Virus record (IMG/VR): IMGVR_UViG_3300008266_000453
Coordinates: 1-24,178 of that record
DNA length: 24,178 nt
From: a virus
Lineage: Duplodnaviria; Caudoviricetes
Reading direction: 5' to 3' (one strand)
The notes below the pieces were generated by a model. It was not told the DNA's origin. It ran no database searches and saw only the letters and a program-made list of their open reading frames with translations. Position 1 is the first letter of the stretch. The number at the start of each line of letters is the position of its first letter. Of this stretch, positions 5,205-24,178 are shown piece by piece. Made by a program: the position numbers and the translations under genes.

Positions 5205-7475
5205 TTACTGGTAAATCGGAATAAAGGTTGGAGTAGACACTCCTGGTATAATTATTTGAATCCAGCCAGCATTACTACTTGCGTTGCTTGGAGAGCCAGA
5301 GTAGGCGGAAACGTTTAAAACATCCGTAGGAGTCCAATTTGTTCCATTAAAAACAAGCCCCTGCGTAGCTGCTGGAGCAGTTGCAGACACCGCAGTAGAT
5401 TGCAGTGATGTTGCATTTCCATTGCTTGGGTTAGCAACAGGAGTCCATCTGCCAACGGAATCTTCACCTACTACAAGTGACAGGAACTGGCCAGCGCTTG
5501 GAGTAGCTCCAGAAATTGGAGTGGACTGTAGCTGGGTGGCGTTTGTCGAAGCGTCTGCTGGAGTCCAGCGATTAATGGAGTCTTCGCCTGTTACAAACTT
5601 TAAAATTTGCCCAACGCTTGGAGCGGTTGCAGAAATGGGATCCCCCTGCAATTCAACAGCGTTTGCCCCGCTGGGCCTCCATGCATATCCGGATGAAGGA
5701 TTTATCGGATCTTTAAGCCCCCAAGTAAGCACCTGAGACTCTGCCGGAGTAATCCCAGATAGAATTTCAGTGCCTTGAAGTTTGCCTGCATCCGCTAGGC
5801 TTGGAGCATAATTAGCTCCATCGTAAACCAAGCTCTGCCCAGTGGTTGGAGCCGTTGTGGTTACTTCAGTTCCCCGTATAGATGTTGCGTCTGCCCCTGC
5901 TCCTCCAGCAGTTGGCTTCCACTGCTGCAAAGAGTCATCCCAAACAAGTGCATCTCCGTCACTTGGAATGTTTGAGCTTACATCGTAGCCCTGAAGCTGA
6001 AATGCGTTTGCTACAATTGGACTCCAAAATGAGTTTGAAATATTGGGCTGGCTATCTGTGTTTTGAATAACGCAAACCCAAGCCGGATCTGAGCTTGAGG
6101 TGGTTACAATCTGCCCAGGCTCGTAAGTGGTAGTAGAGTTCCAAATTGTGGAAGTTCCGCCTCCAGAAACCACAGAGGGCTGCCATTCTGAGCCGCTCCA
6201 AACCAAGGCATTCCCAGTGTCAGGAGCATTCCCCGAAACAGGCCGGCCTTGAATGGCAGTTGCGTTTGCGCTGCCACCAGAGCTTGGAATCAATCTTCCA
6301 ATGCCATCAAACGCCAATACTTGGCCGGCAGTTGCCCCCACAAGATCAATTGGCAAATTTAAACCTGGCCTAATTCTCCAAGAGTTAAATGAGACTTCAC
6401 CAGTTGGAAAACAGGAGGTAACATTAACCTGTACAGAAGATGCTGACGAACCAACAACAAATCCAGACATCCACCTCTGCCCGTTTGTTGCTGTTATTGT
6501 AACAGGTTGAGTAGAAAAGTATGGATTGACTCCTGTGTTGTTTGAAAACGCAAAAGTCTTTAATCCGTATCCAACCGCAACATTTGTGCTGGATTCCTTT
6601 TCCACTGGAAGCACGATAGTCGATTCACTTGCAGATCCAATCCGCCCTTTTGCATCAACTGTGATTGATCCAACTTTGCCAGTGGATCCATAGCCGTAAG
6701 TTCCAGCAGCAACTCCAGAGGCAGACAACTGCGCAGACACGGCCCCAGGTCCAGTGGCAATAACATCACCTGTCAAAGAGGTGATTGCAGTTTGGGGATT
6801 TGCAATTGCCGTCAAGCTTGTCACACGGCCTTTGGCATCAACACTGATCTGGGGAATCTGATTGATTCCACCAACATTTGTCTGAGCAGAGGTAATTGAA
6901 ACAAGCGAAGCGGTGATTGTCTCAGCCCCAGATCCAACAACGTCACCGGTAATGCTGGTGACTGCTTTTGGATGCGAATGATCTGCTCGCGCAAAATCTG
7001 TGCTGGTTCCGATAACCGGAGAGTTGGAATCTGGAGATGGGTTCAGCGTACTTGCTTCTGGAATGGTGCCAAACCTAGCGTCATTTCCTTGAGCGGCTGT
7101 GCCTGCTGTTGTTCCATACACAACAGCCAAAGATCCCGTTGATGTGATTGGGCCACCAGAAAGGCCGGTTCCAGCCGTCACGCTTGTGACTGTGCCCATG
7201 GTATTCGGGGCGGTGGTTAACCCAGTGACGCGACCCTTGGCATCGACAGAAATGACAGGAATGTCGGTCACGCTGCCAATGGACGCTTGCGCAGTTGTGA
7301 CGGCAGCCAGCGTTGGGTTTGGATACGAGCCTGCCAGGTCACCTCCAGCAGTGCCAAAAGGCCGGCGGATGATTGAGCCAAGAACCTGCTTAGTGGTTCC
7401 TCCCTGTACGATTGGAACAATCTCTGTTCCGTCTACAGCGGATGCTACTGGAAGTTGAGTGATTCTGTCGCCCAT
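5205..7475 (-). CDS. Long repetitive tail fibre protein
   Basis: 756 aa, Ser/Thr/Gly-rich. Three (S/T)VDAKGR repeats and seven NATxLQ...GQxLxW...WxP repeats. N-terminus resembles the adjacent fibre. Confidence 0.8.
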   Translation of the reverse strand: MGDRITQLPVASAVDGTEIVPIVQGGTTKQVLGSIIRRPFGTAGGDLAGSYPNPTLAAVTTAQASIGSVTDIPVISVDAKGRVTGLTTAPNTMGTVTSVTAGTGLSGGPITSTGSLAVVYGTTAGTAAQGNDARFGTIPEASTLNPSPDSNSPVIGTSTDFARADHSHPKAVTSITGDVVGSGAETITASLVSITSAQTNVGGINQIPQISVDAKGRVTSLTAIANPQTAITSLTGDVIATGPGAVSAQLSASGVAAGTYGYGSTGKVGSITVDAKGRIGSASESTIVLPVEKESSTNVAVGYGLKTFAFSNNTGVNPYFSTQPVTITATNGQRWMSGFVVGSSASSVQVNVTSCFPTGEVSFNSWRIRPGLNLPIDLVGATAGQVLAFDGIGRLIPSSGGSANATAIQGRPVSGNAPDTGNALVWSGSEWQPSVVSGGGTSTIWNSTTTYEPGQIVTTSSSDPAWVCVIQNTDSQPNISNSFWSPIVANAFQLQGYDVSSNIPSDGDALVWDDSLQQWKPTAGGAGADATSIRGTEVTTTAPTTGQSLVYDGANYAPSLADAGKLQGTEILSGITPAESQVLTWGLKDPINPSSGYAWRPSGANAVELQGDPISATAPSVGQILKFVTGEDSINRWTPADASTNATQLQSTPISGATPSAGQFLSLVVGEDSVGRWTPVANPSNGNATSLQSTAVSATAPAATQGLVFNGTNWTPTDVLNVSAYSGSPSNASSNAGWIQIIIPGVSTPTFIPIYQ

Positions 7476-7476
7476 A

Positions 7477-7683
7477 TTATTCCAAAATCAAGTTTTCTGC
7501 GCTTTCTGTCGTAAGTCTAAAGCCAGCTTCAGTGTTAAGGTAATCCACACCAACGGGCGCAGAGCTAACTGTCTTTCTGAATTTAAAGGTCTGACTGTTA
7601 CCAGAAACCTGAATTCTGGCAAAGTTTTTATTGATTGCCTTTGCCGGATCCTGATTTCTTTTTCGTATGAATCTGGTGATCAT
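7477..7683 (-). CDS. Small virion-associated hypothetical protein
   Basis: 68 aa, tightly packed between structural genes. C-terminal LNTEAGFRLTTESAENLILE motif. Confidence 0.6.
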   Translation of the reverse strand: MITRFIRKRNQDPAKAINKNFARIQVSGNSQTFKFRKTVSSAPVGVDYLNTEAGFRLTTESAENLILE

Positions 7684-7685
7684 GC

Positions 7686-8882
7686 TTAGTAGCTGTAAAC
7701 CATGTTCATTTTACGGACTTGGCCTTGCTGCCTGATCAGCACATCAATCTGTTGCTGAACTGCAAACTCGGCCATTCCTTCAAGTGTATCAGCCTCTGTT
7801 GCCCTGCCTTCTGATCTGAGAAAGTCAGCGGACACAGCATTCACCAGATACCCCTTAAACCGGAATGGGATACTCACAGCCCTCCAGTTAAAGCTGGGAT
7901 TTGACGGCAGCACACCGATAGCCGCATTTGCGTATGCGTTCCAAAAGTTGCCAGATACAGGCAAATTCTTGTTGGGTGGATTGTACGCCGCACTACCCTG
8001 GCTTGTGTCATAGTACACCTGAGCGCCAGCAGGGTAGGCGATTGTTGCATCAAGCCTTGTGCCAAACAAGTATGGTGCTGTGTTTCGGAGCAGGACAAAC
8101 CTTGTCTCAAATCCAGCAAATCTGAGCACAAACAACTCTTGGCTGAGATTCTGAATAGACACAGCCGTGCTGGTGTCTATGTCCGGCATGTTCTCGACAA
8201 TGTACGAGTCATCCCTGCACCTGGATGTCTTCCGCGGATCATCTGTCCAGCAACCAATGGCTTGGCCCGAAACAACTGTGATTGGCTGCCTGTTGCCCAA
8301 AAACTCCAGCGTAGACCCAATAATGTTAGTCCACTCAGGAGTGCCCCATGGAATCTGAATGGTTACAGAAGTGATGTAGGGATTTGTGTTCTCCTCTGCA
8401 ACTGTGTACTCAAATTCATACTGCGAACTAGCAGAGCTAATCCGTGTTCCGTCTTCCTTGGTGATGAAGAACGGATTAATGATGCCGACGAGCGACTCTC
8501 CAATTGTTCCCTTTTGCCAAGCCTGACTGCCAAAGTCTCGCAGGTAAATTCTTGGGTAGTTTGTGTCAAGTGTCAGAACGCAAGACAACGTGTTCTGAGA
8601 ATTCTGAAAAAGCAAAGAGTTCCCATTTTCCTGCAAAAGCTCCACTTCGTTTTCGGTTAAAACAGGAATAGGAGCCGTTGTGACGTTGGTGATCGGAATC
8701 CCAGGCCAAACCTGAACAACCTCTTGGATGTCGGGCCAATCCTCCCGATCCCAAATCATGCTTAGCCTGCGATTAGCAAAATCGCGAATGGCTGCAAAAG
8801 ACTTGTCATTTAGCGTGTTTCTATCAAGGCCAATAAGCTGGCATGACTCTGCTAGAACTGCGCTAAATGGAACTGTCTTCAT
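7686..8882 (-). CDS. Putative head-tail adaptor / tail tubular protein A
   Basis: 398 aa. Helical N-terminus (ANRRLSMIWDREDWP) and helical C-terminus (IPFRFKGYLV..VSADFL...G) flank a beta insert. This architecture and position suit a podovirus adaptor. Confidence 0.55.
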   Translation of the reverse strand: MKTVPFSAVLAESCQLIGLDRNTLNDKSFAAIRDFANRRLSMIWDREDWPDIQEVVQVWPGIPITNVTTAPIPVLTENEVELLQENGNSLLFQNSQNTLSCVLTLDTNYPRIYLRDFGSQAWQKGTIGESLVGIINPFFITKEDGTRISSASSQYEFEYTVAEENTNPYITSVTIQIPWGTPEWTNIIGSTLEFLGNRQPITVVSGQAIGCWTDDPRKTSRCRDDSYIVENMPDIDTSTAVSIQNLSQELFVLRFAGFETRFVLLRNTAPYLFGTRLDATIAYPAGAQVYYDTSQGSAAYNPPNKNLPVSGNFWNAYANAAIGVLPSNPSFNWRAVSIPFRFKGYLVNAVSADFLRSEGRATEADTLEGMAEFAVQQQIDVLIRQQGQVRKMNMVYSY

Positions 8883-9440: not shown

Positions 9441-9525
9441 TGGTGGGTGGTAGTGGACTCGAACCAATGATGCCCGAAGGCGGGAGATTTACAGTCTCCT
9501 GCAATAGCCGCTATGCGAACCACCC
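9441..9525 (-). tRNA. tRNA-Tyr (GTA), class II with long variable arm, encoded CCA
   Basis: Acceptor GGGTGGT/ACCACCC, anticodon stem GGAGA/TCTCC with loop CTGTAAA, variable hairpin GCC-TTCG-GGC, T loop TTCGAGT, ending ACCA. One T-stem mismatch. Confidence 0.92.
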
Positions 9526-9533
9526 AATGAAAT

Positions 9534-9608
9534 TGGTTGCAAGGGCAGGAATCGAACCTGCGGCCTCCAGCTTATGAGACTGGCGAGCTGCCACTGCTCT
9601 ACCTCGCT
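9534..9608 (-). tRNA. tRNA-Met (CAT), initiator-like, encoded CCA
   Basis: AGCGAGGTAGAGCAGTGGCAGCTCGCCAGTCTCATAAGCTGGAGGCCGCAGGTTCGATTCCTGCCCTTGCAACCA folds as a cloverleaf. It has a 1:72 mismatch (A:A) and A11:U24 as in initiator tRNAs. Confidence 0.93.
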
Positions 9609-11995: not shown

Positions 11996-12247
11996 TTATG
12001 CCAAATCTTTCTCTTCAGTCAAGCCATTAAGTTTTAATGCTTCATTTCTTAATGTTAAAAGTGTTGAATAAACCAAGTTCACTCCATCGGCTTGGCCGCA
12101 AGCGTGGATACGATCTTCGCCTTTTACGTTATTGCTAACAGCATTAAGCCAAAGGCTTTCCTGCATCTGCTGGATCGTTTCAATTACTTGATCCCAAACG
12201 TGGTTTTTGCCACCCCAACCGAATGCAAGTCGTTCTTTTTCGGTCAT
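11996..12247 (-). CDS. Small helical protein downstream of portal
   Basis: 83 aa with ATGA overlap with the portal stop. A small gene at this position is common in podovirus-like head modules. Confidence 0.7.
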   Translation of the reverse strand: MTEKERLAFGWGGKNHVWDQVIETIQQMQESLWLNAVSNNVKGEDRIHACGQADGVNLVYSTLLTLRNEALKLNGLTEEKDLA

Positions 12248-14352
12248 TGTTGTTGAATGGGTGATACTCCAATCCTTCCAATCTGAGCGTTCTGTTTCTG
12301 CATCACGCTCATTTTAAGGTTCTTGATGTAGTTCTGGAACAGCTGCTGAAAGTTCTCATCAGACTGCAATGCGGCCTGAGCCTTTGGATTGCTCTGAATG
12401 ACCTGCTGCGAGTATTGCAGCTTGGCCTGAGCGGTCGGATCGTTTTCCTGATACGATGCCTCGTTGCCCAAGAGCATCATAGCAATGTCTGTCTGAACGT
12501 CTTTGAACAGCTTCTGAGAGGCCTGCTGCTCTGTCATAATCAGTTCGGCAGACATCTCCGGAGCAATGGCCTGAATCATCATCTCTGTGAGCCGATTGGA
12601 GTTTAAGACGCCGCCAGAGTCCATCTGCTTGATGCTCTTCAAATACTCAATCTTCTGAGTGATGTATTCCTTGTCTAAATTCATCACATCAAACCTGATG
12701 TTGAAGTCGAACTCGTTGTGGATCTCAGACAAGTTCTGCGGCAACTGGCCTCCGGTGATGCGCTGGATTTCTCCTGGAGCCATGTACTGGCAGCAAAGGG
12801 CAAACATCTGTCGGAAGACAGATCTCCACGACAGCAGCCATGTGTTCACCAGTGCCTGCTGAAGCATCTGGGTTACCTGTGGGGCGACAAACTGATTGGT
12901 GGTCCCAAAGTAGGCCGCGTGTTGCTGTTCCACCCTTTTGATGAGGTCGAACGCCAGATTGGGCGGCCGCGCCGGCGGATCCATGAACGTGTAGTCGTTG
13001 GCGTTGGTAACCGGAAGTTGCACGCCCGGACCCACCTTGTTCATGGCGCCAATGCGCTTCACCACGCGGATTGGAGGAAGCGTTGAAAACGCGGTGCTGT
13101 CCCGAATCGAGTCATGCTGAGCCTTGATTTCGTCCTGATCCGTGCTGGAAAGCTCCGGGATGCCTCGAGTGTCTGTGATTGCCCGGCGAATCTGCTCTCG
13201 GCGGAACTCTACGAAAGGATATTCGCCATGGGCGTAGTCCAAACGCTCATGGATGGCCCAAGAGTCCCCGTCAGACTGCCGATTCGAGGCCGCTTGGGGA
13301 CAGATAACGGTGTAGAAGATGGCTGGGGCGTCCCCATCAAGACTCTTGGTGTAGCAGTACACCACTTCCACCATATTCATGTAGTTCACCCCGTTGTAGA
13401 CCATCATGGTGGTGGTCGGAAGCAGGTTGATGTTGTAGTAGGAGCTGGATTTACCCAGCTGCTGCAAGGCCCGCTCCACCCAGTCCGGATTCCAGCCCTC
13501 AGTCGTGATTTTTTCACGCAATTCCACCTCAGACATCCATGTCCGGCGGAAAATCACGCGGGAACGCTGCAAATCTGCGGTTTCAGGAGGGAAGATGATC
13601 TCGTCCCAAGGCTTCAGTGCGACAATTTCAGGCAGGTTCTTGCTGACGTACTCCTCGTCTCTGGTTGTCTGACCTTTCTCAGCCAGCTCGCGGATCATGC
13701 GCTTGGCATCGGAGTTCTTCAGATCCGGCATGACGGCCTGAAAAATCCCAATGGCCTCCTCGGACTGATCCATGATCATCTGCGGCAGGGCTGCCAGTGT
13801 CTCACTACCAGATTGCTCAGCCATCTGGAGGATCTCCTGCATGTACACAGGTTGCTTCCGGACGCTGATGTTCTGCTGCCAGCCCACAAAGAAGGCACTC
13901 CATCCGTATTGAAGGGCGTACTGGGCGCCAAGTGTGGCCTCCTTGTACAGCTGTTGAGGCATCTTGCAGTCCCGGATCCAGCGCAGAAGTGTGGTGGCAA
14001 CCTGAGACTGCTCAACGTGCGTCATGTTCACGCCATCGGCCCGAATCTCAGCCTTCTGGAAAGCCGAAACCAGCAGGGAAGTCAGTTCGTTACAGGTAGC
14101 GTCAATCAGACGGGCACGAACATCAGAGGCCCCCTCAAATGGCCAAGCAGGATCTCCTTCCGAACGGTTTTCAGAGTGCTTCTTGCCATCATCTGTCTGA
14201 CCGGGCCACCGACAAAACCGAATGTTGTCAAACTTGGTAACAAGATTTCCCTGAGATGAGTTGATCATCGAGCGGTTGTATTCGCTCAAAAGCTCGCCAA
14301 CATGCGGCTCCTTGGAGGCAATGGCCAAAACATCAGTGTTGTAATCGAGCAT
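12244..14352 (-). CDS. Portal protein
   Basis: 702 aa, immediately after terL. WPFEGASD motif, helical body and Gln-rich C-terminal barrel region as in P22-type portals. Confidence 0.85.
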   Translation of the reverse strand: MLDYNTDVLAIASKEPHVGELLSEYNRSMINSSQGNLVTKFDNIRFCRWPGQTDDGKKHSENRSEGDPAWPFEGASDVRARLIDATCNELTSLLVSAFQKAEIRADGVNMTHVEQSQVATTLLRWIRDCKMPQQLYKEATLGAQYALQYGWSAFFVGWQQNISVRKQPVYMQEILQMAEQSGSETLAALPQMIMDQSEEAIGIFQAVMPDLKNSDAKRMIRELAEKGQTTRDEEYVSKNLPEIVALKPWDEIIFPPETADLQRSRVIFRRTWMSEVELREKITTEGWNPDWVERALQQLGKSSSYYNINLLPTTTMMVYNGVNYMNMVEVVYCYTKSLDGDAPAIFYTVICPQAASNRQSDGDSWAIHERLDYAHGEYPFVEFRREQIRRAITDTRGIPELSSTDQDEIKAQHDSIRDSTAFSTLPPIRVVKRIGAMNKVGPGVQLPVTNANDYTFMDPPARPPNLAFDLIKRVEQQHAAYFGTTNQFVAPQVTQMLQQALVNTWLLSWRSVFRQMFALCCQYMAPGEIQRITGGQLPQNLSEIHNEFDFNIRFDVMNLDKEYITQKIEYLKSIKQMDSGGVLNSNRLTEMMIQAIAPEMSAELIMTEQQASQKLFKDVQTDIAMMLLGNEASYQENDPTAQAKLQYSQQVIQSNPKAQAALQSDENFQQLFQNYIKNLKMSVMQKQNAQIGRIGVSPIQQQ

Positions 14353-14373
14353 AATGTATGGAAATCCTTGGCA

Positions 14374-16122
14374 TCAATAGCTGCCACATTTTGATAGTTT
14401 GTCCCATTGTTTTTTCCATATGGGATTACTGGTGTGCATTGGGTGCATCGCTACAAGGTAACCCAAGGCATCAATAGGATCTTTCGATGCACCTTTCTGG
14501 CCATCTTGTCCAGTCCATTCACGCAGGGACCAAATCAAGTTTTGGCAACTTTCATGCACCATTAAGCGTGGATGATTTATTTTAACGTCCAATGGCATCT
14601 CTCTGTCAAAGCACAGCAGGTCGTTGATGATCATCACACGCTCTTCAACAGGGACGCCAGCGGCCGGGATGAAATACAGAGGGTTGTCTGCATCATGAAG
14701 CATATCCAGCAGGGTTATGCCTCCTTCCTTGCTGATCGTCTCTGTACCGGCAGACCTTGGGTCGATGTAGCGTTCGGCGATGTCTTCCGATTTGTCTTTG
14801 TCTGTCTCCAAGGACCAGATCAGGTTTGTGTACTCGTTGATGCCTCTGCCAGCTCCGGACCTCTGTGCCGGACCGGGTTTACCGTCCGCCTTCTCAGAGG
14901 GCAATGCCCACTCTCCGTATGAAGGATCAGGCCACTCCCGGTAAATCCAGACAGTCTCGTACTCATCTACTCTGGCCCAGAGCATGAACCAGTTACGGGC
15001 GCCGGCCGGATCCGCAACCATGTAGTTTGTGCCAGACGGACAGAGTTCCGTAACAGGCTGCGAAAAAATGTTTTGCTCCCCAAACATCGGGAACTGAGAT
15101 CCGGCTGTCTGATCCGCCCAACCATAGGCCCGGATCTTGATGTCATGCGAGCTGCGTCCCTTGAGCGTCTGTTTCATGCGCTCCCAGTTGTTGTATGGGT
15201 TCAGTTTCGAGTGAAACCAGATGCAGCCGTGCTTTCCGTAGACACCCTCTGCCATGTAGGGCATGTGCCCCTTGGGGACAGCCAAGACATTGTTCTCCGG
15301 CAGCAATTCGGACTCCTTCCACTGTGTGATCTTGGCCGTGGTGATGAACTCTTTGACGACTTGCGTGTAGCCAAGGATCGGAGTGAAGGTGACGATCAGC
15401 TTCCCGTTCCGGGTGACCAGACGATAGCGGAGTGTCTCGAGCCAGTCCTGCGGCACCAACTCATCGCACCAGACAACATCGACTTCACCACCTTCCACCA
15501 CCTTGATGTCCTGTGCGTAGTTCAGGAACCAGATCTGATTCTTCATGTACACGGCCGTGTTGTCTGAAAAGCCATTCTTCTGAGTCCATGCCACCTGAAT
15601 CTGTGCGCTGCGCTTGGCCTCCTTCAGCTCCCTTGGGAGATACTTGTGAAAGACATTCTGCTGCATCGAAACGCTCGTCATGTGCGTGGTGTGCAGGCAC
15701 CAGATGTTCAGCCCACGTTTTGCGGATCGCTCCTTCAACCAAGCCGGCATCGTTCCGGCCAGATCCATTCCCACAAAAGCCTGGGCCACCCTCTTCGCTG
15801 CGTACTCTGTCTTTCCTGCACGATTTCCTCCCAAAATAAGGATCTCATTTTTGGTATCAAGAATGCTGTCAGCATCCGGCCAGGCCATCAACTCGTTCCC
15901 GTAGCGGTAAGGATCTTCCTGTTCTGCCCGGATCCGCTGCTCCCTTGCCAAGAACATCCGCATGACCTCCTGTGGCCCCACATTTTCAATCATGCGCACC
16001 CTCTGTTCCTCGTTTGGACAGGGGATGATCGGATGCTCCGCCATAGGAAACCTAAGCAGCTTTTCCACAAGCTTTTCCCTCTGACTCGGAGACAGGTGAT
16101 TTTCTTCTGTTGGCGTTGACAT
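14374..16122 (-). CDS. terL: Terminase large subunit
   Basis: Walker A GGNRAGKT, Walker B VVWCDE, coupling motif TFTP and RNase H-like nuclease acids (VADP, YIDP, KDPIDALGY). Start taken as ATG at 16122 after an A-run. Confidence 0.93.
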   Translation of the reverse strand: MSTPTEENHLSPSQREKLVEKLLRFPMAEHPIIPCPNEEQRVRMIENVGPQEVMRMFLAREQRIRAEQEDPYRYGNELMAWPDADSILDTKNEILILGGNRAGKTEYAAKRVAQAFVGMDLAGTMPAWLKERSAKRGLNIWCLHTTHMTSVSMQQNVFHKYLPRELKEAKRSAQIQVAWTQKNGFSDNTAVYMKNQIWFLNYAQDIKVVEGGEVDVVWCDELVPQDWLETLRYRLVTRNGKLIVTFTPILGYTQVVKEFITTAKITQWKESELLPENNVLAVPKGHMPYMAEGVYGKHGCIWFHSKLNPYNNWERMKQTLKGRSSHDIKIRAYGWADQTAGSQFPMFGEQNIFSQPVTELCPSGTNYMVADPAGARNWFMLWARVDEYETVWIYREWPDPSYGEWALPSEKADGKPGPAQRSGAGRGINEYTNLIWSLETDKDKSEDIAERYIDPRSAGTETISKEGGITLLDMLHDADNPLYFIPAAGVPVEERVMIINDLLCFDREMPLDVKINHPRLMVHESCQNLIWSLREWTGQDGQKGASKDPIDALGYLVAMHPMHTSNPIWKKQWDKLSKCGSY

Positions 16123-16193
16123 TTTTTGAGATTCTGAGATGTTTCCTGTGCAGGCCAATAACCTGCCGCGTACCTACTGGCCAACCTGAAAGA

Positions 16194-16448
16194 TTGGAGC
16201 CACTAGCGAATACATGGTTCCGGGTGTACCTCCTGACCCGGATTAAAAATCACAGGCCTCGCGCCTCTGAGTACTACACAGTCGCCCGCGATAGAGGCAA
16301 TGCTAGGCTGATCGGGTAGCCATGGGCTGAGACTGTGAACGCGATGCGATAGGGCGACTTTTATACGGAAGTCTCTGTGCTTGCTTGAGTACTCCCCCAA
16401 TTCTAGGCGGCCAACGCTCAGTCTTGGGGGTACTCTGCTCAGCTCCAA
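16194..16448. ncRNA. Candidate multibranch structured RNA upstream of terL
   Basis: Closing stem TTGGAGC/GCTCCAA encloses TCCGGGT/ACCCGGA, AGTCGCCC/GGGCGACT and GAGTACTCCCCCAA/TTGGGGGTACTC. No convincing ORF. Confidence 0.5.
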
Positions 16449-16469
16449 AGCTCCTATTGCCGGAAGTGG

Positions 16470-16925
16470 TTAAGCCACAGAAGCTGCTGTGGCTATCATG
16501 CCGGCTTTCCCAAGAACGATAGTACCATCTGATACCAGAATCAGCTGGCCAGTCTTCAGGCCATTACCCTTCAGCCCGCAGAAAACTCGGCCGCAAACGT
16601 CCGTATCCACAAATCTTGGGTTTGGATACTTGCGAGTAATCTTCGCAACCATTGGTGTGCTGGCGCACTCTGGCGCCTTCACCGGGACCACTGTCTGGCT
16701 CCCTGTCTCAGGCTGCACCTCCTCAGGCTGCTGCTTGTGCTCCACCAAGCTCGGATCCACTACATCCGCAACCTCACCCAGAAATCCCTTCCGGAAGACA
16801 ACCTTGAAGCCAAAGCGATTCCTCCTGCGCACGAAATCGGTACCTTCTTTGTACCTTTCCAATGCATAATTTGCTCCATCTCTTTCTTTCACCCATTTCT
16901 CGCTAATTGTAAATACGTCTCCCAT
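16470..16925 (-). CDS. Hypothetical protein (151 aa)
   Basis: ATG start, co-oriented with the late operon, two beta-rich segments joined by an acidic linker. No family recognised. Confidence 0.6.
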   Translation of the reverse strand: MGDVFTISEKWVKERDGANYALERYKEGTDFVRRRNRFGFKVVFRKGFLGEVADVVDPSLVEHKQQPEEVQPETGSQTVVPVKAPECASTPMVAKITRKYPNPRFVDTDVCGRVFCGLKGNGLKTGQLILVSDGTIVLGKAGMIATAASVA

Positions 16926-17143
16926 ATGTGTTCAAAAACCTTACACATTCCTACGGACACCACAACAACAGAAAATGGCGCCCAAAATTCACAAGAATCT
17001 TGGCACATTTAGCTGCAAACTAATCCGCGCTTCCGAAACGGGGCAAGCTCACAACCTGTTGTGGGGCAAAAGCCCGCGCCACTTTTCCATACTGCCAAGG
17101 CACTGTAGCCAAAGGGGCGCCTTGTGGCATTAAAAAATTTTCA

Positions 17144-17198
17144 GGTGGGGGGATGCCTAGGCCTAGAACTTCCCCCCGGACGCTTGGCCGCCCCCACC
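17144..17198. other. Dyad-symmetric G/C-tract element, candidate genome terminus or pac site
   Basis: GGGGGGA-tgc-CTAGGCCTAG-aact-TCCCCCC (17147-17177). An alternative pairing is GGTGGGGG (17144-17151) with CCCCCACC (17191-17198). Lies at the strand switch and composition boundary. Confidence 0.4.
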
Positions 17199-17259
17199 CC
17201 TACTATTCCGATCGGTTTAGTCAGGATTGCCCTTTCTACAGAGTAAAAGCGGCCAAAAA

Positions 17260-17725
17260 GACAAGCCGGAGACAACCGGAACGGCCTTTTCCGGCCTATG
17301 GAGCCTTTGGCCGGCCTTCGGAGCCGGGGAAGGGAAGCCGGCCGCTTGTCTGACAAGCCGGAGACAAGCCGGGAAGGAGCGGAGCCGGAGCGGGGAAGGC
17401 CGGGAGGAGCGGTCATTGCACAAAGCCGGGAGCCGATCGGGGAAACGGATTCCCCAGAACCTAGCCTTTGCCTTGAACCCCGAAGCTTGTCTCCGGGAGC
17501 CAAAGACAACCGGGGAGCCGGGGAGCCGGGGAGCCTATTCCCGGCCGTTGTCTTTTCCTTCCCGGCCGTTGTCCCGGCCTTGCCATGCTCCCGGCCTTTG
17601 CTGGCCTTCCGGGAGCCTCCGGGAGCCGGCTTCGAAGCGGCCGGCGCCGGGAGCCTTCCCGGTTGTCTGAAAAGAAGTGAAGAAAAGAGACAACAAAGGC
17701 TTGTGTCTTTTGCTTGTGTCTTTTA
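17260..17725. repeat. Cluster of GACAA(G/C)CCGG-type direct and inverted repeats in non-coding DNA
   Basis: GACAAGCCGGAGACAA at 17260-17275 and 17352-17367. Palindrome GCTTGTC-T-GACAAGC at 17344-17358. Inverted TTGTC copies further right, tandem GGGGAGCC and tandem GCTTGTGTCTTTT. Confidence 0.7.
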
Positions 17726-17795
17726 CTTTGGGTTCTCGGTCGTCTTTCACAACGGAAGCCGGCCGGCCTTAAACTAAACAAAGAAAGATAGTTAT

Positions 17796-18941
17796 ATGTA
17801 CAACCGAAACGAAACCCTCTCCGGCGCCGAAGCACGTTCTTTTCTCCGGAACTGGCTCCGGGAAGCCGGCGTAGCGTCAAAGCTTGCCGATTCCCTGACT
17901 ATGGCGGAGTTAAATGAAGCTTGGACGGATGAAAGCAACACGGCCTTGTTGGCTTTGGTTAATCGGCCGGAGCCGAAGCCGGCGCCGGTTGTCTCTTCCC
18001 TTTCGGCCGGGAACGAAACGGCGGCCGCTTTGATGATGCAAGCGCTCGCAATGGTTCAACCGAAGGCGCCGGCCTTGGACGAAGCCCGGATCCTTGAGCT
18101 AATCCGGGAGCATGCTCCGAAGCCGGAACCTTCCGTGGTGCATTACAGCTTCACAACGGCCGCCGGGACGGTAACAACGGAACGCCGGGAACATAGCTAC
18201 TTTCCTTTGATTGTGGCCGCCCTTTCAACCCGGACTCACCTTTGGCTTGTCGGTCCGGCCGGCGGGGGAAAGACAAGCCTAGTCGGAGCGGCCGCCGGGG
18301 TTCTGGGGTTGGAACACCGGGCTTTGTCGGTTTGCGCGCAAACTACCAAAACCGACCTTTTGGGCTTTATTGATGCCACCGGGGTTTACCGGGGAACGGC
18401 CTTCCGGGAGGCCTTTGAAAAGGGGTTTGTCTTTTGCTTAGATGAAGCCGACGGCGGAAACCCCAACGTGTTGGCCGTGCTCAATTCCGCTTTAGCCAAC
18501 GGGGAAATGACCTTCCCGGACGCTACGGTGAAGCGGGGAGAAGGGTTTGTTTGTGTTGCTTGTGCAAACACGTTTGGAAACGGCGCCACCGGCGGTTACG
18601 TTGGCCGGAATCAAATTGACGCGGCCACCTTGGACCGTTTCTTTTTCTTGAACCTTCCCTTGGACCAAGGCCTCGAGGCCTCTCTCGTTGGCGTCTCCGG
18701 GGTTGAATCCCCGGCCTTTGATATGGCCGCCGGTGGAACAACAACGGCCGCCGGTTGGCTTTGGTTTGTGCAGAAAGCCCGGGAAGGGGCGGAGAAGCAC
18801 GGTGTTAAGGTTGTTATTTCCCCGCGTGCTACTATCGGAGGGGCAAAGCTTGCGGCCGCCGGGGTTGGCCTTGAATGGCTCAAGAAAGGCTTTCTCTTTA
18901 AGGCCTTGGATTCCCTCTCCGCTGAAAAGCTTCTCTCCTAA
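17796..18941 (+). CDS. AAA+ ATPase, MoxR/CbbQ/CobS-like (AAA_5 type)
   Basis: Walker A GPAGGGKT, Walker B FCLDEAD, sensor I CANT, arginine finger region RNQIDAATLDRF and sensor II ISPR. Confidence 0.92.
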   Translation: MYNRNETLSGAEARSFLRNWLREAGVASKLADSLTMAELNEAWTDESNTALLALVNRPEPKPAPVVSSLSAGNETAAALMMQALAMVQPKAPALDEARILELIREHAPKPEPSVVHYSFTTAAGTVTTERREHSYFPLIVAALSTRTHLWLVGPAGGGKTSLVGAAAGVLGLEHRALSVCAQTTKTDLLGFIDATGVYRGTAFREAFEKGFVFCLDEADGGNPNVLAVLNSALANGEMTFPDATVKRGEGFVCVACANTFGNGATGGYVGRNQIDAATLDRFFFLNLPLDQGLEASLVGVSGVESPAFDMAAGGTTTAAGWLWFVQKAREGAEKHGVKVVISPRATIGGAKLAAAGVGLEWLKKGFLFKALDSLSAEKLLS

Positions 18942-18950
18942 TTCCCGGCC

Positions 18951-19784
18951 ATGGCAAAGACACTCAAACCAAAAACGCTCCGGCTTCAATTCCGGAACAT
19001 CCAAGAAACGCTAGACTATATGGCCAAGTCTCCGGGAGGCTCTTCCGAAAAGGAAAGGTCGGCGGATTCAACCTTTACCCGGCTTCCGAACTGGCCGGCT
19101 TGTGAAAGAGCCATTCAGTTCGGTTGGCCGGAAGGCTTAAAGGCCGTCTCCGGCCTTGTAGAAAGCCTTTCCGCCTTTGTTGGCTCCGGAATGTTAAAAG
19201 AGACGTTCCGGCCGGCCGTCTCCGGCCTCTTCTTTGACGTTGGCCTTGTTCTCTCCGGTGAACCGGAAGCTTGGCTGGAAACAACGGAAACGGAGGAAGA
19301 GACGAAGGGAAGCAAGGTTGTCACCTTAGCCTTAAATTGTACGGTTTCGGGATGCGTTCCGGCCGCCACAATCGAAGCCCGGGGAGCGGCCATGCTAGCC
19401 TTGGCCGTCTTGCTTGAGCGCTCCGGGAGAAGCGTCCGGGTTGTAGTGGGAGACGCAACAACTCGAGACGGGAGTTATTTGTACGCAGAGACGGTAGTTA
19501 AAGAGGCCGGGGAGCCTTTCGACTTGGACAAGCTGGCCTTTTGGCTTGTTTGTCCGGACGTGCTCCGGAGGTGCTTTTTCCGGATTTGTGAAGCTTCCCC
19601 GCTCCGGGAGCACGTCGACGCAAGAATGGGTGGGGGCTACGGATGCCCGGTTGAAAGCTGGACTCCAGAGGGGGATATAACTCTGAAGGGGATCCTTTCC
19701 GAAACCGCTTGGACGCCGGAGGCCTCCCGGCGCTGGATTGTGGAACAACTCAAAGCCCAGGGGGTTCAATTCTCCGAAGCCTAG
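18951..19784 (+). CDS. VWA-like partner of the AAA+ ATPase, with degenerate MIDAS
   Basis: Starts 9 nt after the AAA gene. Strand VVTLALNCTVSG followed by helix RGAAMLALAVLLERSG and strand VRVVV matches the VWA beta1-alpha1-beta2 layout. MoxR-type ATPases usually pair with VWA proteins. Confidence 0.65.
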   Translation: MAKTLKPKTLRLQFRNIQETLDYMAKSPGGSSEKERSADSTFTRLPNWPACERAIQFGWPEGLKAVSGLVESLSAFVGSGMLKETFRPAVSGLFFDVGLVLSGEPEAWLETTETEEETKGSKVVTLALNCTVSGCVPAATIEARGAAMLALAVLLERSGRSVRVVVGDATTRDGSYLYAETVVKEAGEPFDLDKLAFWLVCPDVLRRCFFRICEASPLREHVDARMGGGYGCPVESWTPEGDITLKGILSETAWTPEASRRWIVEQLKAQGVQFSEA

Positions 19785-19886
19785 GAGCCAAGGGAAAACC
19801 CGGGGAGCCTTTGCAAAGGGGCTTCCCGGCCTTCCCTTGGCACAAAGCCGGGAGAACCAAACCAAACCCAAACAAACCCAAACCCT

Positions 19887-20057
19887 ATGCAAACCCGCCT
19901 TGCCCTTTTCGGGGCTTCCCTTGCCCTTTTCACCTTTGACGCTTTGGCCTTGGCAAAGGCCGCCGGAACTCCGGAAGCCGGCCTTTGGGGCGGCCTTGCC
20001 TTGGCTTCGGCCGGCTTGGCCTTTGCCCTTGCAAGGCCTTTGTTTCCGAAGGCTTAA
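19887..20057 (+). CDS. Small two-helix membrane protein (56 aa), not in ORF track
   Basis: MQTRLALFGASLALFTFDALALAKAAGTPEAGLWGGLALASAGLAFALARPLFPKA. The ATG follows an unstructured A/C-rich leader like those of the other plus-strand genes. Confidence 0.65.
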   Translation: MQTRLALFGASLALFTFDALALAKAAGTPEAGLWGGLALASAGLAFALARPLFPKA

Positions 20058-20324
20058 GCCTTCCCGGTGGCCTTCCCGGCTCCGGCCTTGGCTCCGGGAG
20101 GCCTTCCGGCCTTCCCTTAGTTGTAAGGCCTTCGGGTTGAACGGTCCAATTTTTCCAAGTTGTAAAGCCAACAAGGCCAACGCTTTGACGTTTTGACCCT
20201 GCCTGTAAAGAAACTATCTCAAGAAAACTTCACCTTTTTCCTTGCAAGGAAGCACGCAAGTCTGTACCAAGAAATCAGCACCGAGAAAATTTTCGATGCC
20301 AAAAATCCAAACCAAAAATCCAAA

Positions 20325-20687
20325 ATGAAAATCGAAAACCGCAACACAATCTTCGCCCAAATGCCCGAGCCGGAAAACTTTGAGGAAGCCTCAATCGCCA
20401 TCCTTTTGGCCGTTGGCATGAAAGCTTTCAGTCCCGGCAAACTTGTCTGCACTTCGCTCGCCATGGAAACTTTCACCCGTGGCTTTTTCTCACAATGCCT
20501 TTGCCGGCACATTGTCGGGGATAGGGGCGATTTGGACGCTGAAGACACTCAGACAAACGATGAAGCTTTGGACGGTGGCGGCCGGCTTCTCTCGAGCTAC
20601 ACGCACCCCGTTTCGAAGGAACGCCTCTGGATCATTACCGAACATGACCGGAGCGCCACAACCGTAATGCTCCCCATGGAATACTAG
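20325..20687 (+). CDS. 'Plasmid-related' conserved protein of mobile elements
   Basis: RH..GD.GDL..ED...N..AL..GGRLLSSY...WIITE.DRS.TTV.LP.EY pattern, recognised from a family common on plasmids and ICEs. Start reassigned to ATG at 20325 after an A-rich leader. Confidence 0.75.
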   Translation: MKIENRNTIFAQMPEPENFEEASIAILLAVGMKAFSPGKLVCTSLAMETFTRGFFSQCLCRHIVGDRGDLDAEDTQTNDEALDGGGRLLSSYTHPVSKERLWIITEHDRSATTVMLPMEY

Positions 20688-20778
20688 CGGGAAGGCTGCC
20701 GCTTGCCGGTCGCTTTGAGGGCGGCCGGCATCGGGCAGCAATCACGCTGCAACCAAAAAAAATCGAAAGCAAAAAGTT

Positions 20779-21063
20779 ATGTCTGAAACCTACACCAAAA
20801 ACAAACTCCGCGCTCTTGTCGATCGCCTCAACGAACTCACGGGCAGCCCTTCCCATCCCTACGCGGCGCCGAACGGCCAAGGCACTCACGTTCCGCAGGT
20901 CGGAAACTGGCACGTTTCCCAACAGTACGGTGGCTACTGTGTCGCCCGCATCGTCACCGAATCCGGTGGCTGCTCTCACCCGATTTGGGAGGGACACGTT
21001 CCGGCACGGTTGGCCTGTCTTCAGACAATCGCTTTTCTGAAGGGTTTGGAGTTCAGCAAATAA
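20779..21063 (+). CDS. Hypothetical early protein (94 aa)
   Basis: ATG after an A-rich leader, protein-like composition, co-oriented with the cassette. Confidence 0.75.
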   Translation: MSETYTKNKLRALVDRLNELTGSPSHPYAAPNGQGTHVPQVGNWHVSQQYGGYCVARIVTESGGCSHPIWEGHVPARLACLQTIAFLKGLEFSK

Positions 21064-21075
21064 CCTCCAAAAATT

Positions 21076-21333
21076 ATGACCTACAAAATTGAAAACAAAA
21101 AAGACAACTACTGGGAAGCCGGTTTCACGGACGATTGTCCGCTGGTTCTCGAGAAGGTCGGAGACGAGTTTGTCTTTTCGATCTCAACGGCCAATTCATG
21201 CAACTGGGAATGGTCGCAGAAGCTGGCCACAAAAACCAGTGACGAAACTTGGGAGCAATTCTTCTCGAGCTTTTCAGACACTGGTTGGGAATATATCCCG
21301 TTGATGCGCGAGCTTGCCGAGCTGGCAAACTAG
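21076..21333 (+). CDS. Hypothetical acidic, Trp-rich early protein (85 aa)
   Basis: ATG after AAAAATT, 12 nt after the previous stop. Followed by a terminator hairpin. Confidence 0.7.
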   Translation: MTYKIENKKDNYWEAGFTDDCPLVLEKVGDEFVFSISTANSCNWEWSQKLATKTSDETWEQFFSSFSDTGWEYIPLMRELAELAN

Positions 21334-23732: not shown

Positions 23733-23944
23733 TCGGCGTCCCTTTCTTCGTTCAGACAGTTTTCGCACAGACAGGAGGGGTCTATTGCTTCGATGGTCAC
23801 AACGAACTTCATCCCCTCAAATGGACCGTTGTCCACCTGCATCTGGAATTGAGCGCATCTGAGTTCGTAATTGGCCATGATCTCGCAAAGTGTCTTTGCT
23901 GCCTTCGTGGCCCTTGCTTCGTCTTTTTTGTTGGGTGTGTTCAT
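23729..23944 (-). CDS. Hypothetical protein with CxCxxC
   Basis: Start reassigned to ATG at 23944 (MNTPNKK), overlapping the helicase stop. Confidence 0.65.
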   Translation of the reverse strand: MNTPNKKDEARATKAAKTLCEIMANYELRCAQFQMQVDNGPFEGMKFVVTIEAIDPSCLCENCLNEERDAE

Positions 23945-24178
23945 TGAGGTAAAAAGCTGGCCGTGCGGCCGTTGAATCTGAGTGTTGTCTGAACGCCACA
24001 AGGGCCGTTCCGCTGGTAGGGGATGGAGATTGTCCGAAGTTCGGATCCCTCCTCCTCATCCAGCTTGATGGCCATGATACAGGTGGCGTCCTGTTGGATG
24101 GCGCGGCTTTCGCGGGCCTTCCCCTGCTCGTTGAGTTGGGTAATTGAAATCACCAGACAACCCAACTCCAGCCCCAGC
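23941..24178 (-). CDS. dnaB: Replicative DnaB-type (SF4) helicase, C-terminal fragment
   Basis: ELGCLVISITQLN...RESRAIQQDA.CIMAI...YQRNGP.G...L.F matches DnaB motifs H3/H4 (SQLNR, LRESGxIEQDAD, KxRNG). Truncated by the window edge. Confidence 0.85.
   Translation of the reverse strand, partial: LGLELGCLVISITQLNEQGKARESRAIQQDATCIMAIKLDEEEGSELRTISIPYQRNGPCGVQTTLRFNGRTASFLPQ

Follow-up and report, generated by a model that had tools for sequence, protein, structure and literature searches.

The window analysed here is a stretch of 24,178 nucleotides from a tailed virus (Duplodnaviria; Caudoviricetes), positions 1 to 24,178 of IMG/VR record IMGVR_UViG_3300008266_000453, and its element of interest is an island of about 3 kb (17156-20193) in which the tetramers CCGG and GGCC are crowded and several trinucleotides are depleted. 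The skew is real, sharply bounded and selected at the DNA level. The island starts at a terminus-like signal, carries genes for an AAA+ ATPase and a DUF7192 protein, is written in different dialects in related phages and shows fast synonymous turnover. We consider it fairly probable that this is the last-packaged and first-ejected 3 kb of a 40-kb genome, that its vocabulary records selection against short target words of sequence-specific, restriction-modification-like host defences, and that CCGG and GGCC are mostly a residue.

Word composition of the island

Between positions 17170 and 20180, CCGG was found 97 times and GGCC 68 times, together with GCGC (n = 10), CGCG (n = 3), AGCC (n = 41), GGCT (n = 26) and AAGCTT (n = 7), and the equal-length comparison stretch 12241-15240 in the portal and terL genes contained 23 CCGG. 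The tetramer counts made by hand in the first-pass annotation were exact, and the enrichment is, as stated there, built in all three codon phases (18/21/21). The three open reading frames (ORFs) of the island contained 60 CCGG, compared to 13.0 ± 3.1 in 1000 recodings with the codon use of the genome (maximum 23) and 34.2 ± 3.2 when the island's own synonymous codons were shuffled (maximum 45 in 1000). The enrichment thus persisted in controls that preserve the protein sequence, which supports the DNA-level selection proposed earlier. In the ATPase core the amino-acid shift relative to distant homologues was small (Ile 1.8 vs 3.0%, Tyr 1.5 vs 3.7%). Among Markov models of the island, the first-order expectation (33 ± 6) was exceeded by the observed 97 CCGG, whereas a second-order model already yielded 88.6 ± 8.9, so that most of the signal resides at the trinucleotide level.

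The stronger half of the signal, overlooked in the first-pass annotation, is a loss of words. The trinucleotides CAG/CTG occurred 22 times in the island against 142.5 expected, and ATC (33/107), ATG (32/91), ACT (31/79), GTA (26/59) and CAC (43/87, observed/expected) were likewise purged, as was AAT. The depletion was seen on both strands. The number of distinct 6-mers was 970, compared to a backbone mean of 1357 (minimum 1256 in 33 windows), which makes the vocabulary of the island about 30% smaller. Joined to record G001, the window forms a circle of 39,918 bp, and in this genome the island is unique, with a CCGG density of 26-39 per kb compared to at most 11 elsewhere in G001.

The features of the island and its surroundings are as follows.

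14374-16925, minus strand: terL (14374-16158; phrog_2) together with two small upstream ORFs; composition ordinary, orientation divergent from the island
17134-17207, minus strand: conserved terminus-like signal with a G-tract (17201-17191), a 10-bp palindrome (17157-17166), a C-tract and an A/T tract
17156-20193, no strand assigned: recoded island, rich in CCGG/GGCC, purged of CAG/CTG, ATC, ATG, GTA, ACT, CAC and AAT, 970 distinct 6-mers
17248-17795, plus strand: non-coding leader, a purine-rich half followed by a pyrimidine-rich half (by eye); 28 CCGG in 17170-17795
17746-17775, plus strand: sigma70-like promoter match (9 of 12; consensus match only), upstream of the AAA gene
17796-18941, plus strand: CobS/MoxR-like AAA+ ATPase, 381 aa (phrog_249, E 3e-43; PF07728)
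18951-19784, plus strand: DUF7192 protein, 277 aa (PF23822, E 4e-31), homologue of Crossroads gp132 and phiM5 gp63
19785-19860, plus strand: intergenic inverted repeat (by eye), its form but not its sequence kept in loci L004 and L006
19887-20057, plus strand: 56-aa hydrophobic ORF, homologues 40-56% identical in L011, L014 and six more distant loci
20193-20260, plus strand: right border, just before a conserved promoter-like element (~20237) that precedes genes of ordinary composition (20193-21333)

The predicted genome end and the dialects of related phages

The composition of the window changed at 17248 and 20193, and the depletion of the six words common to related phages started at 17156. 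Around the palindrome of the terminus-like signal, 26 alignment columns were invariant in all five aligned relatives, and in the same five the observed-to-expected ratio of the six words dropped at the palindrome from 83-115% to 32-47%. The ratio recovered near +3000 in the window phage, L004 and L006 and near +2250 in L007; the sequence of L008 ends early. In the phages Kudefre and Aegeus a similar G-tract precedes the end of the record by 49 and 51 bp, respectively, by which the end of the window phage would be found near 17150, while a regular-expression search for the G-tract pattern gave no match in phiM5 or Crossroads. From these sequence features we predict a genome end near 17150-17165.

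The cultured phages phiM5, Kudefre, Aegeus and Crossroads have mapped right ends, and in each of them an AAA gene reads inward within 0.9-1.9 kb of that end, opposite the terminase. In phiM5 the AAA gene occupies 41916-43121 of 44005 and its neighbour is a DUF7192 homologue (hhalign P 97.2). Among the stretches fetched from the four phages, trimer content deviated most in the last kilobase of each (G 194, 342, 169 and 189), a test inflated by this kilobase being partly non-coding. By a last-in first-out order, the end opposite the terminase would be packaged last and enter first. The probable first-entering position suggested in the first-pass annotation draws support from the signal at the border and from the homologous genes at mapped right ends.

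End dialects were also detected in cultured Gordonia, Mycobacterium and Sinorhizobium phages (right ends of L279, L280, L281 and L278). The end of Kudefre displayed GCCCC 51 vs 8, GATC 1 vs 14.5 and CGAG 7 vs 37, that of Crossroads CACA 72 vs 21 and that of phiM5 ATTGC 32 vs 6. The skew of Kudefre is strand-asymmetric (27 vs 2), whereas that of the window phage is symmetric.

The same island was found in the same place in phages with terL genes 94-98% identical, but in other dialects. Locus L004 contained 1 CCGG in the island and 73 in the backbone, and L008 contained 0 and 44, respectively; both islands were CAG-rich. The islands of L003 and L184 contained 1 CCGG, which for L184 compares to 18.7 predicted from its own trimers, CCG itself being normal. 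In L006 and L007 the islands favoured AAGG, AGCC and TGCA, and in the more distant L009 GCGC (n = 61) and CGCG (n = 37) were abundant relative to 15 and 10. Common to all relatives' islands was the loss of ATC, ATG, GTA, ACT, CAC and AAT, although it was weaker in the distant ones. Orthologous islands thus purge CCGG or use other words, so that CCGG and GGCC cannot serve there as a conserved functional signal. The role specific to these tetramers that the first-pass annotation put forward is for this reason mostly unsupported, the more so as L009 uses GCGC and CGCG and a search for a C5 methyltransferase found none in G001 and G002, and what remains of it is the excess beyond avoidance models described below.

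In three pairs of sister phages the islands were 72-87% identical and the backbones about 97% identical. Synonymous divergence (dS) of the island genes was 0.72-1.53 compared to 0.14-0.19 for terL and portal in all three pairs, nonsynonymous divergence (dN) was 0.05-0.10, and genes just right of the island had dS of 0.15-0.38 in the two pairs covering them. The island has accordingly diverged at synonymous sites at approximately 4-10 times the backbone rate, spread evenly. Within a listed subset of 43 differences to a co-occurring strain, 1 new CAG/CTG was found against 8.0 ± 2.6 expected (P 0.001). The number of distinct 6-mers was 857-970 in the window phage, L004 and L184, and 1137-1218 in the milder islands of G003-G005. 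Lineages with complete genome-wide loss of 4-5-bp words (G003, G004, G005, L112 and L165) were those with milder islands, and a trade-off between genome-wide word loss and island skew is possible.

Selection on words and the alternatives weighed

The history of the island might be depicted as follows: the end near 17150, predicted from the border signal, would enter first if the last-in first-out order holds, and approximately 3 kb would be exposed and transcribed, with host defences acting on this stretch ahead of the expression of its early genes. The AAA+/DUF7192 pair or the 56-aa protein may then shield the later DNA from some, though not all, host nucleases, and target words of the nucleases would be lethal only in the first 3 kb. 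Repeated sweeps would consequently recode that stretch, and each lineage, meeting different enzymes, would arrive at a different dialect. CCGG and GGCC would mostly be what is left after removal of CAG/CTG and other words. A single transition turns CTG into CCG, and likewise CAG into CGG.

Words missing in the island and present elsewhere in the same genome were identified in several lineages, namely CAG/CTG in the window phage and CCGG in L184, L004 and L008. Other words were purged from entire genomes: the window phage has lost ATCGAT, GAGCTC and CTGCAG, G003/G004 ACGT and CCWGG, and G005 CACTG, GGACC and CCWGG. These purges point to restriction pressure from many cutters of palindromes. Such palindromic targets were kept out of the islands too (0 vs 5.7, 5 vs 31, 3 vs 25 and 3 vs 29.5), which argues that the island meets these enzymes as double-stranded DNA. 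An exemption of the island from type II cutting, hinted at by a few words, was rejected on this fuller test. Six motifs of type III, IIG and BREX systems were below expectation in four of six islands and above it in two. Methylation motifs from a lake have been described (PMC6329791, available in part).

The occurrence of CCWGG in the backbone of the window phage was 47 (106 expected), and in the 90%-identical L004 and L008 it was 0 of 23 and 0 of 16 expected. Judged from these counts, the window phage has likely been released recently from a CCWGG cutter.

How far CCGG and GGCC are a residue was addressed with word models. When the backbone model was tilted by penalties only, CCGG, starting at 16, reached 37 once 10 words were penalised and 69-72 at 20-30 words, compared to 96 observed, and GGCC reached 42-48 compared to 67 observed.

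Several observations weigh against the avoidance of target words as the sole or sufficient account. In avoidance-only models 24-27 CCGG and 19-25 GGCC stay unaccounted for, and when both signs are allowed, CCG with a positive sign is the first word chosen and 14 words match the fit of 20 negative ones. The loss of 85% of a bare trinucleotide exceeds the need of a single 6-7-bp motif, and no single known motif accounts for it. The half-sites of 14 published type I motifs, taken from other organisms, were depleted no further than the same half-sites reversed (0.63 as against 0.60 for the window phage), and the real half-sites were above the reversed ones in all six islands. Other type II words are purged genome-wide, so that the protection of the backbone cannot be general, and in one plasmid study the leading regions were not generally depleted in type II targets (10.1101/2025.04.03.647016, in the part available). 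The terminus and the order of entry are predictions, the enzymes are putative, and the host is hinted at by a 73%-identical terL on a contig binned to a Pedosphaera metagenome-assembled genome (MAG).

The unexplained excess may alternatively reflect positive selection for CCGG and GGCC, or for GCGC/CGCG, AGCT and TGCA in relatives: the end that enters would be packed with motifs that the previous host had methylated or phosphorothioated and would thus carry dense self-marks, or it would titrate a defence protein. We find this unlikely, though not negligible. It is favoured by the excess over avoidance-only models and by 6-bp palindromes above the backbone level in all nine islands. Among the differences listed for the co-occurring strain, and with avoided words barred, 2 CCGG were lost compared to 3.8-4.2 expected (1 gained) and 1 GGCC compared to 3.2-4.2 expected (3 gained), which is weak support in the same direction. 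GGCC is a Dnd motif according to the available part of PMC12914056, and the phage encodes a PAPS-reductase-domain protein (PF01507, E 1.6e-9; L090:10915-11754, record G001), whose gene is far from the island among large ORFs of the late region. Against positive selection speak the orthologous islands that purge CCGG, a CCGG spacing without clear period, and the second-order Markov expectation already close to the observed count. A search of G001 and G002 gave no match to the C5 methyltransferase family PF00145; together with the window these two records span the circle, window 7203-8727 being scanned only as called ORFs. A Pfam search of the 39 called ORFs revealed no methyltransferase of any kind, the N4/N6 families not being searched in six frames. 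Moreover, G003/G004, with different dialects, carry the PAPS-reductase gene at 77% identity, and it has no match in G005, where the island is strong. In G001 it is followed by a CxxCxxCC gene (both together at L090:10915-11977), which is 87-88% identical in G003/G004, and its other neighbours are large ORFs without Pfam match; among the 21 ORFs scanned, no cysteine desulfurase and P-loop ATPase partner was present beside it. PAPS-reductase genes occur in phages (PMC11437467, seen in part). A leader methylated by an M.SPR-type enzyme was ruled out, on the tests run, by the missing C5 methyltransferase, and a Dnd/Ssp operon was discarded because the partner genes of the PAPS-reductase homologue were not found. 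Sequence alone would not fix the sign of selection on CCGG and GGCC.

A local mutational or biased-conversion process, such as error-prone copying of a terminal repeat, template switching or Vsr-type T:G repair, would act with no selection on words at all, and we hold this to be distinctly unlikely. The evenly spread synonymous divergence, short direct and inverted repeats, a doublet enrichment of AA/TT (1.97), the CCG/CTG swap between the window phage and L004, and the rise of AGCT with the fall of AACT in L006, L007 and L171 are in accordance with such a process. Vsr-type repair of CCGG, however, predicts CCAG as the most depleted CAG context, and CCAG is the least depleted (11/38, compared to 1/29 for ACAG and 2/42 for GCAG), whereby this drive was rejected. 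Neither does a mutational process suit L184, where the loss of CCGG with normal CCG is site-specific, nor the loss of ATC, ATG, GTA, ACT and CAC, which are not C-to-T products of the enriched words, nor sister lineages moving in opposite directions. Selection for single-strand folding, as in an Frpo-like single-stranded DNA promoter or a structured RNA, appears very improbable. The leader folds with z -5.4 relative to dinucleotide shuffles and the intergenic hairpin is kept in form, but with shuffles preserving 4-mers the leader has z -0.4 and all nine stretches folded range from -0.4 to +1.9 (12 shuffles each), so that the excess vanishes and a fold of the Frpo type is largely refuted. Depletion on both strands and the barring of double-strand palindromic targets are also contrary to it. 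The least credible explanation, with hardly any probability left to it, is a recent transfer from a donor with such a signature or a chimeric assembly, as might be suspected from the sharp borders and the low identity to the islands of close relatives. Contigs of the independent run X3 bridge both borders (16345-19102 and 19230-20518) and two IMG/VR records are 99.96-99.98% identical, by which the chimera raised in the first-pass annotation is ruled out; the same genes are in the same place in relatives, and backbone sisters are island sisters in all three pairs. In a comparison covering two candidate donors, the trimers of the island correlated at 0.36-0.43 with the two candidate host MAG samples, and none of 224 host windows came near it (minimum CAG/CTG 54, maximum CCGG 41).

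Purging and positive selection might also act together as a two-part, host-specific code at a fixed entering end, in which words cut by the host are purged and palindromes marked by the host are packed (in the window phage CCGG/GGCC, in relatives GCGC/CGCG or AGCT); the DNA arriving first would thereby pass a self-test of modification density. We regard this as a doubtful proposal; if true, the dialect of the last-packaged 3 kb would be a readable record of the host methylome and the AAA+/DUF7192 pair a new and widespread pre-early counter-defence machine.

Related systems, island genes and remaining observations

In T5 and BF23, restriction works only if sites lie in the first-step-transfer region, and the first-injected end carries pre-early genes (PMC10644984, available in part); first entry of the present island is predicted from its border and genes. 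T5 differs by a terminal repeat of about 9.7 kb with a shown pause, whereas here 3 kb of a 40-kb genome with an AAA+/DUF7192 cargo have had their whole vocabulary rewritten. For Murciavirus (Autographiviridae) and type I restriction-modification, only motifs in the leading region decide restriction, and this region is the most variable part of the genome (PMC12455610, in the portion available). The island would resemble it in being a leading region that decides restriction and varies most; the difference is that one 11-base bipartite motif is lost there by point mutation, whereas here dozens of 3-5-mers shift and sister dialects are opposite. By analogy, the island would work like the T5 first-step-transfer and Murciavirus early-injected regions. 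A conjugative plasmid's leading region (10.1101/2025.04.03.647016, available in part) is similar as first-entering DNA with higher GC and anti-defence cargo, the latter being predicted here, but it enters single-stranded and was found there to have no general type II depletion, while the island is strongly purged of words and shows no excess of folding.

The right-end early module of cluster L mycobacteriophages (Crossroads gp141/gp140/gp132) and phiM5 (gp64/gp63) contain homologous AAA+ and DUF7192 genes that point inward from the end opposite the terminase, and the last 1-3 kb of these phages are also compositionally deviant. In these phages the skew is strongest in the last, partly non-coding kilobase, whereas here it runs through the ORFs. 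Crossroads genes 122-144 are expressed early; gp132 and gp141 can be dispensed with in the laboratory and both set off the Sbash defence, and gp141 is toxic by itself (PMC6426596, consulted in part). A MoxR/vWA pair has been described as a deletable island (PMC3357382, likewise in part).

Whole-region, lineage-specific recoding was not found described in the literature searched, which did not cover supplements and included few subscription papers. The island appears to be a new, extreme variant of avoidance in first-injected DNA, over which the excess of CCGG/GGCC remains. Known cases of site avoidance in such DNA involve single motifs; the avoidance here appears to have changed the wording of an entire 3 kb, in codons as well as in non-coding DNA. 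The border is readable to about 100 bases, and phages with 94-98% identical terminases have opposite dialects. This may offer a sequence-only route to the entering end, and its length, in uncultured phages, and yields a list of candidate host target words. As a candidate counter-defence system it also points to a pair of early genes, as yet uncharacterised and common at the ends of phage genomes, and it provides a clean test case of whether the enrichment of motifs, and not only their loss, is under selection.

In the island an AAA_5 ATPase gene precedes a DUF7192 gene; along most of their length the two are homologous to Crossroads gp141/gp132 and phiM5 gp64/gp63, which places the island genes with this pair. 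The ATPase is a homologue of Crossroads gp141 (29% identity over 326 aa), and as a cobaltochelatase CobS it scored 32.6 bits with TIGR01650, far below the curated cut-off of 558.55. The DUF7192 protein matched Crossroads gp132 and phiM5 gp63 by hhalign (P 99.5 and 97.2) and found no match among PDB sequences. Its alignment-based AlphaFold2 (AF2) model was good (pLDDT 82.9) and its single-sequence fold poor (pLDDT 38.5); its secondary structure would fit a putative vWA-like fold. No informative family match pointed to a counter-defence function of the island proteins. The leader could not be aligned to relatives whose flanks are 90% identical, and an Rfam search with it gave no match.

The wider occurrence of such skews was surveyed in environmental AAA loci of 11 kb or more, shorter or duplicate loci being dropped. 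In 23 of 59 loci no other 2.5 kb deviated more than the AAA window, and the same held for 17 of 53 at less than 55% identity, a modest generality. Local skews in unrelated environmental loci (L166, L168, L220, L146/L216 and L173) comprised GGCC 51 vs 12, CGCG 34 vs 5, GCGC 39 vs 14, CCAG 15 vs 48, and GGCC 8 vs 1 where the flanks avoid GGCC. A second AAA lineage, about 36% identical, occupied the same slot beside terL in L047, L048, L044 and L027, with terL 78-80% identical. A C5 methyltransferase gene was found in G004 (G004:C1:19058-20491, minus strand; PF00145, 127 bits) with a weak partial match in G003, and both genomes are without ACGT.

The genome belongs to a tailed phage, its terL, major head protein, tail and DnaB genes matching PHROG families. 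Nearly all genes read one way, while the island and the three genes after it are opposite and diverge from terL. The GC skew displayed a one-way drift round the circle and no mark at the island. The 73%-identical terL, one of three matches, is a weak hint of a host in Pedosphaera (Verrucomicrobiota); the trimer profile of the MAG sample correlated at 0.80 with the backbone and 0.36 with the island. HsdS domains were present in three of seven genomes of the candidate host family. A CRISPR spacer and prophage search of 401 genomes of the candidate host class gave 133 matches, nearly all via phage tRNA genes, and no spacer was identified in it.

In runs X2, X4 and X6, seven clustered differences were located within the AAA gene (window 18368-18394), which suggests recombination between island alleles. 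Genes for tRNA-Tyr(GTA) and tRNA-Met(CAT) directly follow the major capsid gene (window 9441-9608, minus strand), and phiM5 also has a tRNA-Met after its capsid gene. Two separate ORFs of 220 and 199 aa, roughly 2 kb from each other, encode the DnaB-like helicase (window 23941-24178 and L001:14768-18138), and both parts are kept in G003-G005.

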